Source: a phage
DNA length: 44,016 nucleotides
Sequence record: PZ379180.1
Direction: 5' to 3' (one strand)
Shown here piece after piece: positions 14,582 to 39,553 of the stretch. Under the pieces are notes generated by a model. It was given only the letters and a program-made list of their open reading frames with translations. It was not told the origin of the DNA and did not search any database. The position numbers and the translations under genes were made by a program. Numbering within the stretch: the stretch's first letter is position 1; each line of letters opens with the position of its first letter.

Positions 14582-14605
14582 AAGGCCCCTTTCGGGGCCT
14601 TTTTC
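14582..14605. terminator. intrinsic terminator between convergent genes
   Basis: AAGGCCCC-tttc-GGGGCCTT hairpin followed by TTTTT. Confidence 0.6.
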
Positions 14606-15160
14606 TTACAAACCTAATTTTAAAGCAATGTCTATAACGTTCGATTTAACGTCACCCGGTATGATGTAGGTGTCGTAATCTTTTACACCACTAACATCGT
14701 ACAGATAGCCACGGCTATCGCAGATGAACGTATAGCCGTCACGATGGAGGCGGACGATTCGCACGTCATGCCCCGCGGCGACGATAGGGGCAACTTCACT
14801 GGCGAATCCACCATCGGACACTACAAAAACTTCGTCGCCGTCAGGCAAGTTTTCAGCAAGATACTTACCGAAATAATCATCGCCGAATACCGGTTTAATG
14901 AATTGCTCAGAAATGGCAATCATTAACCGGCGGCGGGACAACCCATTAAGAAAACCCTCGGGTTTTTCTTTCCGCGCCCGGTCGTCGTAGCCGTCGAGAA
15001 ATTCGTGGTAAGCATCCTGGCCTAACGCTGCCAAAGCAATATTGAACATTGGATTCTTGAAACTGGTAGTTCCTTTCGCAAAGCCCATTTCTACCAGCGC
15101 CATAGCAAGCGTGTCTTTCCCGCAACCCGCAGGGCCATTAAGAATAATTACCTTAGCCAT
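14606..15160 (-). CDS. deoxynucleoside monophosphate kinase (T4 gp1-like P-loop kinase)
   Basis: P-loop GPAGCGKDT and following PMFNIALAALG segment recalled as similar to T4 dNMP kinase. Confidence 0.55.
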   Translation of the reverse strand: MAKVIILNGPAGCGKDTLAMALVEMGFAKGTTSFKNPMFNIALAALGQDAYHEFLDGYDDRARKEKPEGFLNGLSRRRLMIAISEQFIKPVFGDDYFGKYLAENLPDGDEVFVVSDGGFASEVAPIVAAGHDVRIVRLHRDGYTFICDSRGYLYDVSGVKDYDTYIIPGDVKSNVIDIALKLGL

Positions 15161-15648
15161 TATTTATCGCTCCCGTGTGGTTTTAAGTGTGTAGAGTTCC
15201 CGTTACAGTCGTATTCGGTAACTGCGTGTGCGGTTATGCCGAGGTCACGGAAATGCTTTATTACCGCTGGAGAGTCGTCGAACGCACACAAGATTCTTTC
15301 CAGTCCGAAAGCACGCAACACCTCTTCTTTAATTACGATGTCTTTTCTGTTGTCGTGTTTGCTGCGCATGATTAGCGTGTCAAACCTAACGTTATTCTCT
15401 CGTAACCATTCGCGAGTCTCCTCCTCAGCGTCATCACTTCGCCCGGTAAGGATAATTATAGTAAGTCCGGAATGCCACAGTACGCTACACAAATGGATAT
15501 TGTCGTATATCGGAGCGTCATCTTTGCAGGCCATGTTAAATGGCTTCCACGCCCACGTTTCTCCGTAGTTATCTTTTGGTAACAGGTGTAAGCGATGGGT
15601 ACCGTCTACCAATGTCCCGTCTAAATCGAAAATTACAATATCTTTCAT
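15160..15648 (-). CDS. HAD-family phosphatase
   Basis: N-terminal FDLDGTLVD motif (DxDGT); start overlaps upstream gene stop. Confidence 0.6.
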   Translation of the reverse strand: MKDIVIFDLDGTLVDGTHRLHLLPKDNYGETWAWKPFNMACKDDAPIYDNIHLCSVLWHSGLTIIILTGRSDDAEEETREWLRENNVRFDTLIMRSKHDNRKDIVIKEEVLRAFGLERILCAFDDSPAVIKHFRDLGITAHAVTEYDCNGNSTHLKPHGSDK

Positions 15649-16775
15649 CCCAGCATCTCCGGTGAAATAGTTAAACGTGCGACCTCGCCATATTCGGCGC
15701 TATAAGTAATTACATTTGCACTGCGGCCCGACATCCATCCGCCGCGAGAGGCGTAGGCGTCTTTAGCCGCTAAGGTGCGGTGTTGCTCAACAATCATGTT
15801 ACGGCTTTCTACAATCTTCTGGTGGTGCAGATGGCCTACGTGGGCGTAGCTGTAAACACTCTCGCCGAACGCTTTACGGAACTTGGCAATCATAACCGGT
15901 TCGATAGCGTCGAATCGTGCTTTATGCCCGTGATGGAAGAACAGCGTCGTTTTGCCGTGTTGCACCATCTTGTAAACATCCGGCGACGTATCGACGAATA
16001 CACGAGGCTCGTTGTCGTACAGTGTGCTGAACATCTCCGCCAGCCAAATCATCCCGGATTCGTCGTGGTTCCCCTGAACTATAAGCAAGCGAACAGTTTT
16101 ATGCTTAACCAGAGCCATATCAACAACACGGCGGACCATGCGAATCATGTAGCGGACAAGTTTCTGGTAACGCGTGTCGGCGTCAAGGACATGACCACTC
16201 GCCGGTGTAACGGTGTCAAGACTATCGAAGTGAGCTAAGTCGCCAAGAAGATTAATAACCCCCGTACCTGCATCCGGTGCTTTCTGAAACGCAGCATCAA
16301 ACCAACGAGAGAATAAGTCCTCCGCGATTTTCATATCCCAGTCGTCGCCGCTCTCGTCAGCCCAGGCTAACATACCGAGATGGAAATCAGATACCGTGTA
16401 AAGATTGAGTAGTTTATCGTCACGTTTGGCTCGTGCCGGTTTAACAGGCGCAACGGGCGTAATCTCTGACTTCATGCCCTCTATTACGGCTTTCATCAAT
16501 TCAACCTGACGTTCGGCATCAGCGTCGGTCTTAACCCATTGCAACTTAGTGTTGCCGAACTCGTCCACCAGGGACGACGTTCCTTTAATCTTGTAACCGT
16601 CTGGTACAAGGTGACTAACGTCGCGCCCGTGGCCTACGCCTTTCTTAGCCAGCTTCGCTTTACGGATTCGGATAACGCGGTCTGAGATTCCGTATTTACG
16701 GGCGATATCGATATTCTTCATCCCGGCGTTCAATTCTTCCTGTAATTGCTCGTCGGTTATTTTCTTCTGGGCCAT
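15645..16775 (-). CDS. calcineurin-like metallophosphoesterase with N-terminal HTH
   Basis: Motifs DFHLG, LLGDLAHFD, QGNHDE, FFHHGH, GHLHH; N-terminal ARKYGISDRVIRIRKAKL; ATG at 16775 with GAGGAAG RBS (track ORF to 16880). Confidence 0.65.
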   Translation of the reverse strand: MAQKKITDEQLQEELNAGMKNIDIARKYGISDRVIRIRKAKLAKKGVGHGRDVSHLVPDGYKIKGTSSLVDEFGNTKLQWVKTDADAERQVELMKAVIEGMKSEITPVAPVKPARAKRDDKLLNLYTVSDFHLGMLAWADESGDDWDMKIAEDLFSRWFDAAFQKAPDAGTGVINLLGDLAHFDSLDTVTPASGHVLDADTRYQKLVRYMIRMVRRVVDMALVKHKTVRLLIVQGNHDESGMIWLAEMFSTLYDNEPRVFVDTSPDVYKMVQHGKTTLFFHHGHKARFDAIEPVMIAKFRKAFGESVYSYAHVGHLHHQKIVESRNMIVEQHRTLAAKDAYASRGGWMSGRSANVITYSAEYGEVARLTISPEMLG

Positions 16776-16813
16776 GCTTACTTCCTCGTGTTTAGGATTT
16801 GTCTTATAGTAGC

Positions 16814-17032
16814 CTACTTCTCTTTCACGTTCGAGTTGCAAGCCCAGATTAAAATGAATACCCACGGCAACAGAATCCACCCGAGAAATAAGTTAGCCAT
16901 GAATATCGCCAGCTTTGCTTTATGGTTACGCATATGTGCCACCAAAAACGGGATAAAATAAACGGCTACAAAAATAATTAAGAAGAACATAGTGATACCG
17001 GTCATAACATAACTCCTGATTTGAGATAACAT
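16814..17032 (-). CDS. superinfection immunity-like small membrane protein
   Basis: 72 aa, two TM helices, YFIPFLVAHMRNHKAKLAIFMANLFLGW recalled as resembling Imm-superinfection family. Confidence 0.45.
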   Translation of the reverse strand: MLSQIRSYVMTGITMFFLIIFVAVYFIPFLVAHMRNHKAKLAIFMANLFLGWILLPWVFILIWACNSNVKEK

Positions 17033-17034
17033 CG

Positions 17035-17063
17035 TTGGTGTAAGTGAATAGTACGCTATTATA
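17035..17063 (+). promoter_or_regulatory. promoter-like element with AATAG-N4-CTATT palindrome
   Basis: TTGGTG-16-TATTAT with palindrome 17047-17060 in spacer; minus strand reads TATAAT at 17058-17063. Confidence 0.45.
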
Positions 17064-17183
17064 TTGGGGAGTGCAAGTAGTGTGCTAGAATAATTTTGCG
17101 CCTAGTGTCGCACACGAAAAGCGGGTGGTTCCCGTCTGGCGCATTTCCTTTAACCAGTAACCTCTTAACCAAAGGATTAAAGA

Positions 17184-17748: not shown

Positions 17749-17964
17749 ATGCCCCCTGAGCTACTAACCACATTTGAGAAGTACAGGGAAATTAAATTCA
17801 CCCGCCGAGTGGACGACGACGGCATCAAGATGTACCCGCGCGAGCAATTACGATGGTCAGATTTAGTGGCGTACAGCACCGTTTCAGGCCAGAATATAGG
17901 GATGTTCGAATCCGACATCATCATGAGCTTAGACGCTATTTTCGAGGGTAGAAACGATGGCTGA
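17749..17964 (+). CDS. hypothetical protein, possibly distal part of chaperone frameshift extension
   Basis: 71 aa ORF overlapping tape measure start; frame open from 17683. Confidence 0.3.
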   Translation: MPPELLTTFEKYREIKFTRRVDDDGIKMYPREQLRWSDLVAYSTVSGQNIGMFESDIIMSLDAIFEGRNDG

Positions 17965-19036
17965 TGTAGCTAGTTTAGTAGTAAAAGTAACAGAGCAAGG
18001 CGCGAAAGCCACATCAGACCGTCTTGACAACCTTTCAAAGTCCGCAAAAGTAGCGGGGGCCGCCGTAGCAGGCCTTGCTTCTATCGTAGCGGCTACCGCG
18101 TATAAAGCTGCCCAAGAACTGGTTGACTCACAGCGGCAACTGGACAAGATGTCCGCCAGTTTGAAGACCTTAACAGGAAGTACCCAAGGTGCTAAACAGG
18201 CGCTAAGTATCCTGCAAGATTTTGCCCGCGATACCCCATACGGACTGGAGCAGGCGGTGGAAGGCTTCCGTAAGCTGGTGGCCCTTGGCCTTACCCCATC
18301 CGAGGAGGCGTTGCGGTCCTACGGCAATACCGCATCGGCTATGGGCAAGGACCTTAATCAGATGATTGAGGCGGTAGCCGACGCCAGTACGTTTGAGTTC
18401 GAACGCCTAAAAGAATTCGGCATCAAAGCCAAGCAGAACAAAAACGACGTAGAGTTTACATTCCAGGGGACAACAACCGTAGTTAAGAAAAGCGCTGCCG
18501 ATATTGAGCAGTATTTACTTAATATTGGTAACGTAAATTTTGCCGGTGCCATGGCGGACCAGGCCAACACCCTTAATGGCGCTATCGCGAGCGCCAGTGA
18601 CTCATGGTCGCAGCTAAAAATGACGCTTGCCACCAGTCTTGATGTTGGCGCACTTGCGGAACCTATCAGGTATATCAATGACTTGATCCAGGAATTAAAT
18701 GCGTCTGTTGCTTCCGGTGAATTAGCCGCTGAAATGCAGATGTGGGGGAACATCGCGTCGGAAGTAGGAAGCGCTATCGAGATGTCATTCGACGCTGCGT
18801 TTGGCTTTGTTGGCGATGCCATCAACGGGCTTAATGAACTGTGGGATTTCAGCAGCAAGAGTATTACGGATAGCGGAGAACAAACGGCTACTACCATCGC
18901 TGAATCCACCGCCGATGCGCTTGACTTCATCGCGGAAGAGTTCACCGCGATGGAGAGATTCTTTGAAGATATGGTTAAAGGCGCGCAGGACGCGGGCCGT
19001 CTTGTACGAGCCGCTTTTACCCCAGGGAATCAGTAG
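17957..19036 (+). CDS. tape measure protein, fragment 1
   Basis: Ala/Gln-rich helical 359 aa ORF after chaperone; frame breaks between 18979 and 19036. Confidence 0.75.
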   Translation: MADVASLVVKVTEQGAKATSDRLDNLSKSAKVAGAAVAGLASIVAATAYKAAQELVDSQRQLDKMSASLKTLTGSTQGAKQALSILQDFARDTPYGLEQAVEGFRKLVALGLTPSEEALRSYGNTASAMGKDLNQMIEAVADASTFEFERLKEFGIKAKQNKNDVEFTFQGTTTVVKKSAADIEQYLLNIGNVNFAGAMADQANTLNGAIASASDSWSQLKMTLATSLDVGALAEPIRYINDLIQELNASVASGELAAEMQMWGNIASEVGSAIEMSFDAAFGFVGDAINGLNELWDFSSKSITDSGEQTATTIAESTADALDFIAEEFTAMERFFEDMVKGAQDAGRLVRAAFTPGNQ

Positions 19037-19074
19037 ACGTAGCTAAAAATATCAACTTCCAGCTTGGCCTGGCT

Positions 19075-19371
19075 TTGGATACCCAGCGCGATGTCGCCGA
19101 CGTTACGCGTAAAAGTTTCCGCGAACAGGTAGAAGCTCAACAGGATATTGTAGCGTTAAAACGCGCGGCGTATGACATCGATAAGGAGTCCGCAAAAGCT
19201 GAGGGGTTAAACAAATTTAAGGTAACCGGAACTGGCGGCGGTTCTGACGATGACGGGTCAGCCGCAAAAGCTGCTAAGAAAGCGGCGGACGCGTTCGAGC
19301 GCCAGAAAAAGCGGCGGAAGACTTCTACTATCAGTCAATCCATCTTAATGATGACGTATTTCAGAAAATAG
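19075..19371 (+). CDS. tape measure protein, fragment 2
   Basis: -1 frame open from 18979 to 19371; breaks at A5 run 19306-19310. Confidence 0.6.
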   Translation: MDTQRDVADVTRKSFREQVEAQQDIVALKRAAYDIDKESAKAEGLNKFKVTGTGGGSDDDGSAAKAAKKAADAFERQKKRRKTSTISQSILMMTYFRK

Positions 19372-19400
19372 AAGCTAACCAGGAAGAGCAACTGTCTAAG

Positions 19401-20294
19401 TTGCAGGATTTTTATAGCAATAAGCTTCTTAGCGACCAACAGTACGAAAACGCCAAGACGCAGATTATGCTCTCTGCCGAACAGGCCCGCCAGGAAGAAC
19501 TGGACAAGAAAAGGAAAGAAGCCCAGGAGAAGCAGCAGAAAGGTGATGATTTCATGGCTCAGATTATGGGCCAGAACGCCACCGAGCTTGAGCTTCTGGA
19601 TATTCAGGAACAGCAGAAACTGGCGGTAGCCGATAAGTACCAGGAACAAGGTCTGATTAGCGAGAAGCAGTATCAGGCCGCGCTTAACGCCATCAACGAG
19701 CAGTACGCAACCAAGCGTGCCGACGCAACGGCAACAGCTTTCGGTAACATGGCTTCAAACATCGGGTCTGCGTTGGGCGAGGCTTCTGGTGCGTACAAGG
19801 CATTCGCTATCGTACAGGCCACTATAGCCACGTACACCGCAGCTATCGAGGCGTACAAGTCAACGGCTGCTATCCCTGTAGTCGGTCCGTTCCTGGCCCC
19901 AGTAGCCGCTGCTGCTGCTGTTGGGGCCGGTATGGCGCAGATTTCCGCTATCAGGTCAGCACGTGAACAGGGTGGACAGTTATCCGCCGGGCAGGCTTCC
20001 ACCATCGCCGAACGCGGTAAACCTGAGGTAATTATGCCGGCGGGGGCGTCGCGAGTACGCACCGCGCAACAAATGAAAGAGATTATGGGCCAAAACGGGT
20101 CTTCTTCCGGCCCATCTAATGTTACTATCGTAAACAACACGAGTTCGCAAATCGGCAACGTATCCACCGAGCAGGATGATGAAGGCCGTCTGCGTATCAT
20201 CATAGAAGAGCAAGTTGCTGCATCTTTGCAGAACAGCAACAGTAAGATTAGCAAGGCCCGCAAGGCCACAAGAAACGCGCCGGGGTTTAAATAA
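19401..20294 (+). CDS. tape measure protein, fragment 3
   Basis: Frame open from 19278; Q/E-rich coiled coil and hydrophobic AAIPVVGPFLAPVAAAAAVGAG segment. Confidence 0.7.
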   Translation: MQDFYSNKLLSDQQYENAKTQIMLSAEQARQEELDKKRKEAQEKQQKGDDFMAQIMGQNATELELLDIQEQQKLAVADKYQEQGLISEKQYQAALNAINEQYATKRADATATAFGNMASNIGSALGEASGAYKAFAIVQATIATYTAAIEAYKSTAAIPVVGPFLAPVAAAAAVGAGMAQISAIRSAREQGGQLSAGQASTIAERGKPEVIMPAGASRVRTAQQMKEIMGQNGSSSGPSNVTIVNNTSSQIGNVSTEQDDEGRLRIIIEEQVAASLQNSNSKISKARKATRNAPGFK

Positions 20295-39119: not shown

Positions 39120-39353
39120 TTATTCCAGGTCTTCTAAAGTAGCGGTAATCCCGCGAACTTCAGCAAAGGCACTATATTTCCCGCCAACATTTTTCACGAC
39201 GCCAGATTTAACCAGCACTTTTAACGACCCTTCAATAATGACGGAACTATAGTACTTAAAATAACTACGGCGCAAGTCGATAACACTGCATGACCCTTTT
39301 TTACGTGTTAACGAAACGACCGCCGTAAATACGCGTGACTGGAACTCTGTCAT
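39120..39353 (-). CDS. hypothetical protein
   Basis: 77 aa ORF, C-terminus LEDLE. Confidence 0.4.
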   Translation of the reverse strand: MTEFQSRVFTAVVSLTRKKGSCSVIDLRRSYFKYYSSVIIEGSLKVLVKSGVVKNVGGKYSAFAEVRGITATLEDLE

Positions 39354-39553
39354 TTCACATTCTCCTTAATCCACGCTTCCACTTTCTCTGGGTCAAACGT
39401 ACCTGGCTGACGACGGCCCATAATGCGAATACAGCAATCAGGGAACTTCCCACTCTTTAGCCAGTTATTCAGCGTTCGACGAGTAACCCCAATACGCTCA
39501 GCTACCTCATTCTGCGTCATTCTCAAACCCTCATTATCAGTTAACGGAATCAA
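39350..39553 (-). CDS. HTH DNA-binding regulator (AlpA/Xis-like, putative)
   Basis: MTQNEVAERIGVTRRTLNNWLK helix-turn-helix; first gene of leftward operon. Confidence 0.55.
   Translation of the reverse strand: MIPLTDNEGLRMTQNEVAERIGVTRRTLNNWLKSGKFPDCCIRIMGRRQPGTFDPEKVEAWIKENVK

Follow-up and report, generated by a model that had tools for sequence, protein, structure and literature searches.

The window, a stretch of 44,016 nucleotides (PZ379180.1), carries on its minus strand a small gene, imm, at the head of a four-gene antisense cassette composed of imm, a metallophosphoesterase gene, a gene for a HAD/PNKP phosphatase and a hypothetical gene. On one side the cassette is flanked by the major tail gene and on the other by the tail-chaperone/tape-measure genes, and it lies antisense to both. 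The second gene (15645..16775, minus strand), which begins 38 nt past the imm stop in the same orientation, encodes a 376-aa metallophosphoesterase, or 'DNA repair exonuclease', named on a weak Pfam Metallophos_2 match and on its GenBank annotation. It is overlapped by 4 nt by the third gene (15160..15648, minus strand), whose product is a HAD-type polynucleotide kinase/phosphatase-domain protein (PF25109 HAD_PNKP, E 1.7e-19). The last gene (14606..15160, minus strand), taken from the ORF listing, encodes a protein of 184 aa which is hypothetical in GenBank and found no match in Pfam. When both strands were scanned for terminators, a bidirectional terminator-like hairpin, AAGGCCCC-loop-GGGGCCTT, was noticed at 14582..14601, which forms the end of the cassette and also of the tail-gene operon upstream, and the same scan found no terminator between imm and the next gene. 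TAC1, imm and the phosphoesterase gene were present in 36 of 36 IMG/VR loci, and the order TMP-TAC2-TAC1 and then imm-phosphoesterase was observed wherever the locus extended far enough.

On its sequence, the window is the genome of a Kagunavirus, a virulent coliphage. It is collinear with the whole genome of VB_EcoS-Golestan save for circular permutation, and the 4-kb segment around imm shares 99.5% identity with Escherichia phage vB_EcoS-phiEc4 and about 98% with Golestan, both of which belong to the Guernseyvirinae, genus Kagunavirus. The imm gene and its annotation are already known, as identical or near-identical proteins are so named in GenBank and RefSeq: an identical 63-aa protein occurs on 82 contigs in public databases, e.g. 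ATS93246.1 of Golestan, which was deposited as "superinfection immunity protein" and has the RefSeq name 'immunity to superinfection'. The imm of a Jerseyvirus has likewise been annotated in print (PMC9409062). A literature search found no experiment on any Guernseyvirinae Imm. Published Kagunavirus genome notes call imm 'involved in cell lysis', 'likely involved in gene regulation' or 'a characteristic of prophages'; these lysis, gene-regulation and lysogeny readings were given without data, are at odds with the known biology of the family and found no support here.

Compared with phiEc4 and Golestan, the window showed isolated indels of 1-2 nt at about 17751, about 19019-19024 and about 19310, several of them in homopolymer runs, and further indels e.g. 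at 314, 7681, 31534 and 34094. Going by the ORF coordinates, the portal gene and the DNA polymerase gene are probably likewise broken up by indels. They look like errors of assembly or sequencing and not like biology, and imm is free of them.

Reading frame, start codon and selection

The sequence-only reading had placed a two-helix protein of 72 aa at this locus. The minus-strand ORF 16814..17032 is indeed present and translates to 72 aa, with the peptide quoted for it, YFIPFLVAHMRNHKAKLAIFMANLFLGW, at residues 25-52. The open frame stood, but its start did not, as a conserved ATG at 17005 gives a protein of 63 aa. This ATG (17005..17003) was kept as the start in 36 of 36 IMG/VR loci, the 63-aa form is the one annotated in the GenBank records of phiEc4 and Golestan, and nine of the 12 homologues from a protein search were 63 aa long; gene models of 58, 72 and 109 aa were also found in public records. 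The ATG at 17032 was missing in many relatives among the 36 IMG/VR loci, or a stop was found four codons before the shared Met, and on inspection of the sequence no purine-rich ribosome-binding site preceded it. We therefore rejected the 72-aa start, since the upstream ATG is unconserved and without a ribosome-binding site, and took 16814..17005 (minus strand, stop included; MTGITMFF...NVKEK) as the most likely form of the coding sequence, which is supported by the conserved start, the GenBank annotation, the PF14373 match and the core pN/pS. The nine in-frame upstream codons (MLSQIRSYV; 17006..17032, minus strand), which gave rise to the 72-aa ORF, are probably a 5' untranslated leader. A Shine-Dalgarno motif, AGGAG, can be read at 17013..17017 (minus strand), 7 nt upstream of the ATG at 17005, and every allele group has a purine-rich motif some 5-10 nt ahead of the common ATG. 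Over imm the GC content is down to 0.41 from roughly 0.45-0.55 in the neighbourhood, a dip which may simply reflect its Phe/Ile/Leu-rich codons.

Across 31 distinct alleles, with a pS of about 0.55, we obtained a pN/pS of 0.28 overall, 0.19 for the core (codons 24-63) and 0.45 for the N-terminal helix. Thus imm is under purifying selection; it is a real, translated gene, of which the conserved core is the constrained part. Furthermore, a family HMM which had been built without Guernseyvirinae rows scored the real protein at 88.9 bits, against maxima of 8.6 bits among 2000 full shuffles and 29.3 bits among 2000 shuffles preserving the hydrophobic segments, and therefore the match is not an effect of composition. 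Chance alone often yields ORFs of about 70 codons (the six frames of the window hold 92 ORFs of at least 90 aa), and yet the idea that imm is such a chance ORF, or that the real gene is a 71-aa ORF on the opposite strand (16746..16961, plus strand), is refuted to near certainty by the Pfam score (E-value 1.8e-13), the shuffle control, a minus-strand frame whose pN/pS is well below 1, the conserved ribosome-binding site and start, and a frame which is open in 57 of 57 loci. The 71-aa ORF overlaps imm antisense, the substitution pattern suits the minus-strand frame, and this antisense ORF is most likely spurious.

Membership of the T4 Imm family

A profile HMM search matched the protein to Pfam PF14373 Imm_superinfect at 50.6 bits (E-value 1.8e-13), against a curated gathering threshold of 27.9 bits, the profile being covered in full (positions 1-42 of 42) by residues 24-65 of the 72-aa ORF. 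PHROG 1039, 'immunity to superinfection', was matched at 86.9 bits (E 3.1e-24). Imm of phage T4 (NP_049660, 83 aa; gene taken from NC_000866) scored 58.2 bits on PF14373 and so falls in the same Pfam family, and it shares PHROG 1039 as well. When the two proteins were compared by BLASTP, they aligned without gaps over 54 aa, the whole core, with 28% identity and 54% positives (pairwise E 7e-11), and R26 and W43 (63-aa numbering) aligned with R33 and W50 of T4 Imm. Among 23 diverse family members the positions P19, R26, I34, W43, W48 and W54 were invariant, and all of them are present here. The likeness to the Imm superinfection-immunity family which had been noted from the letters is thus borne out by the Pfam, PHROG and T4 alignments and by the invariant residues, and we regard membership in the PF14373/T4 Imm family as almost certain. 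The protein departs from the family consensus in having LLPW in place of xLGW. PADLOC-DB gave 0 families at E <= 1 and an NCBIfam scan nothing meaningful; a match to DUF3302 (PF11742), at 26.5 bits below its cutoff of 32, was rejected and treated as similarity between hydrophobic helices.

The two-helix architecture was also confirmed. In the 63-aa form, hydropathy peaked at residues 1-23 and 30-55, and an AlphaFold2 model made with 12 homologues showed helices at residues 2-25 and 29-62 with a mean pLDDT of 79.5. A short basic loop, HMRNHKAK, joins the two hydrophobic stretches; by the positive-inside rule this loop would be cytoplasmic and both ends periplasmic, insertion into the inner membrane and topology being predictions. 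By sequence neither this Imm nor that of T4 found a relative in the PDB, and a Foldseek search of BFVD with the 63-aa model returned no matches, a two-helix hairpin being too small to inform.

Superinfection exclusion as the proposed function

In T4, Imm is an inner-membrane protein which prevents the translocation of superinfecting DNA. According to a 2026 preprint, T4 Imm co-purifies with the tape measure protein (TMP) gp29 and was imaged by cryo-EM bound to it, and the substitutions R33A and W50A lower T4 exclusion (bioRxiv 10.64898/2026.03.06.709160). The same authors liken the mechanism to that of HK97 gp15, and AlphaFold3 failed on their Imm complex (bioRxiv 10.64898/2026.03.06.709160). 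We propose, with a probability of roughly 60%, that the Imm described here excludes superinfecting phages. Imm made in the infected cell would stop the genome of a later related phage from crossing the inner membrane; its conserved core, with R26 and W43, would bind the membrane-inserting part of the incoming TMP and block channel formation, and the superinfecting DNA would then be left in the periplasm. The choice of the TMP as the target is a tentative one, made by analogy with T4 and given somewhat less than an even chance. A fuller version has about the same chance in our view: that a T4-type Imm jams the membrane-inserting C-terminal domain of the TMP in a siphovirus, that the Imm core and this TMP domain are the conserved parts of mosaic modules, that one Imm may cross-exclude Kagunavirus and Jerseyvirus, and that the fixed position of imm is the convergent counterpart of the HK97 gp15 moron.

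Beyond the shared family, both Imm proteins have two hydrophobic helices and a basic connecting loop, and both come from virulent coliphages in which the gene lies beside DNA-metabolism genes. On the other hand, the protein here has 63 aa against 83 in T4, its N-terminus being shorter and its C-terminal tail nearly absent; the phage is a siphovirus, and its TMP is unrelated in sequence to gp29 (no detectable similarity, best BLASTP E 0.24); and imm adjoins the tape-measure operon here but not in T4.

The TMP gene, the candidate target, occupies 17957..20294 (plus strand) and is split into three ORFs in the assembly, with single-base deletions at about 19019 and 19310; its intact homologue in phiEc4 and Golestan has 779 aa. 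On PF20155 TMP_3 the protein scored 36.3 bits, below the cutoff of 41. Hydrophobic segments of the Kagunavirus TMP were located at residues 30-48 and 616-665. In a comparison of seven TMP types the C-terminal part of about 230 residues, including hydrophobic segments, was the most conserved, and the first 500 residues or so were mosaic, with 11-56% identity between phages whose C-termini agree at 94-100%. The T4-like model, which predicts cross-exclusion across the subfamily, is compatible with such a pairing of a conserved Imm core and a conserved membrane domain of the TMP. A search for covariation between Imm and TMP found none, as an identical Imm core occurred beside TMP C-terminal domains which were 59%-100% identical to the reference, and the Imm N-helix types A, B and C did not follow the TMP types (recombinants L011, L016 and L033). 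L027, in which the core substitution M36T accompanies a divergent TMP C-terminus, was considered as a case of covariation and was not borne out, and in one of L050 and L051 a TMP C-terminus of 59% identity lies beside a core which was also found beside a 95% one.

The mosaic holds for the Guernseyvirinae TMPs (L004-L039), in which the C-terminal part of about 230 residues is 72-100% identical and the N-terminal part of about 500 is of very different types. The chaperones and the N-terminal part of the TMP seem to move together when they are exchanged (L016, L011, L033), apparently with one breakpoint in the conserved imm-chaperone intergenic region.

Two other functions were weighed against superinfection exclusion. 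The one which survives better, and which we nevertheless consider unlikely, is that imm encodes a generic small PF14373 membrane protein unrelated to phage-phage exclusion, e.g. one which modulates the host inner membrane, and that it carries its T4-derived name by homology only. An exhaustive profile search matched PF14373 to 13,053 representative clusters at E <= 0.001, in a cluster library which has no names or genomic context and from which the bacterial chromosomal share is not readable. That is far more than the known exclusion proteins, and since PF14373 is so large, the family name by itself is no guarantee of the T4 function. The lack of covariation between Imm and TMP speaks for the same reading, and a near-invariant core across differing tail modules would also suit a conserved host target. 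Against it, all related loci which were examined have imm in the same place, purifying selection acts on it in phages which are strictly virulent, and both T4 exclusion residues are retained. Furthermore, tblastn homologues were found in 808 phage records from several host genera, with Salmonella, Escherichia, Klebsiella, Acinetobacter, Mycobacterium and others as hosts, which again argues against a generic role.

Still less probable, in our judgement, is that the protein is a true PF14373 member which serves envelope protection or the timing of lysis and not a block to DNA entry: it may, for example, limit the membrane damage caused by secondary adsorptions (lysis from without), or act in the manner of a holin or antiholin. 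A small size and two membrane helices are typical holin features, according to one review T4 Imm 'reportedly molecularly resembles a holin', and the paper on phage K1B4 puts the homologue with the late genes and calls it lysis-related (PMC12645636). However, this last statement carries no experiment (PMC12645636), and no holin family appeared in the Pfam (E <= 1) or PHROG output. The role in lysis is already filled, because the close relative Golestan has genes for two holins, an endolysin and spanins at other places, those of the holins and endolysin being about 27 kb from imm in that collinear genome, and imm shares its cassette with DNA-end-processing enzymes and not with lysis genes.

The proposed superinfection exclusion by Imm also has parallels outside its family. 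Gene 15 of HK97 is a moron located between the chaperone and tape-measure genes, and it confers tail-dependent phage exclusion, for which gp15 was proposed to stop tape-measure-dependent channel formation (PMC3594210). Like imm, it encodes a small inner-membrane protein and is an independently transcribed insert in the tail cluster beside the chaperone/tape-measure genes. The two are not homologous, as gp15 is YebO-like and no YebO was found among the Pfam matches here up to E = 1, and HK97 is temperate and expresses gp15 from the prophage, whereas here the phage is virulent and imm heads a four-gene cassette. The resemblance is positional and functional only, and the positional parallel is striking. 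P22 SieA, T5 Llp, T1/phi80 Cor and T4 Spackle are likewise phage-encoded and act at the cell envelope to keep out a second infection, but they belong to unrelated families: Llp and Cor work by inactivating receptors in the outer membrane, Spackle is a periplasmic inhibitor of the gp5 lysozyme, and SieA is a larger inner-membrane protein. None of the four was matched in the Pfam, PHROG or PADLOC scans.

If Imm is active, it would limit coinfection and recombination between Kagunaviruses, and the members of a cocktail could exclude one another, Kagunaviruses being used in therapy and synthetic biology. The phage is also a small siphovirus convenient for testing whether the putative T4 Imm-tape measure mechanism generalises.

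Promoter-like elements and the intergenic region

The cassette is antisense to both of its flanks and therefore needs a promoter in the 178-nt intergenic region (17006..17183), in which no sigma-70 promoter was found at the scan threshold. On the minus strand the region holds a promoter-like element (17048..17076) composed of TTGCAC (17076..17071), a spacer of 17 nt and TACTAT (17053..17048), which agrees with the consensus at 7 of 12 positions and falls below the scan threshold. Its position is conserved in Kagunavirus and Jersey-like loci, the Jersey-like form being TTGCAT-17-TATTAT. The promoter-like element which had been credited to imm as its own survives in this conserved, sub-threshold form, but not as a promoter for imm alone: any promoter here serves the four-gene operon because no terminator separates imm from the next gene, and this element would drive the whole cassette. 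A strong promoter of its own was rejected, as the scan found none and just the conserved 7/12 element was noticed. It is from this weak, conserved sigma-70-like element in the divergent intergenic region that the cassette is probably transcribed. A perfect TATAAT at 17063..17058 was also set aside, having a poor -35 and being unconserved in Jersey-like loci. In T4, imm is an early gene. In the transcriptome of Kagunavirus vB_Eco_K1B4, a coarse data set, the imm homologue was among the late-peaking genes (PMC12645636).

The tail operon has a divergent promoter-like element at 17064..17091 (plus strand), TTGGGG-16-TAGAAT, with a TG that extends the -10, and this too falls below the scan threshold; its TGn motif is retained in Jersey-like loci (TGTTATTCT), and a transcript from this element would start about at an int-alpA-like element. 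The latter is a match to Rfam RF02996, int-alpA RNA, at 17095..17159 (plus strand), which scored 36.6 bits against a gathering score of 35.8. The match falls within the leader of the tail-chaperone/tape-measure operon, on the strand opposite to imm and some 90 nt away from the start of that gene. Nothing else in the intergenic region is as well conserved across two genera, and in Jersey-like phages one stem of the element shows a compensatory change from GUG..CAC to CGG..CCG; the gathering score was reached in just one of the 12 related loci scanned. The int-alpA RNA family takes its name from the int and alpA genes with which it is associated, and we know of no role for it in a virulent siphovirus. 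A 67-aa excisionase-like HTH protein is encoded at 39350..39553 (minus strand) of this virulent phage, and its homologue in Golestan matches PF12728 HTH_17 and bears the annotation 'excisionase and transcriptional regulator'; this HTH protein may be worth considering jointly with the int-alpA-like RNA.
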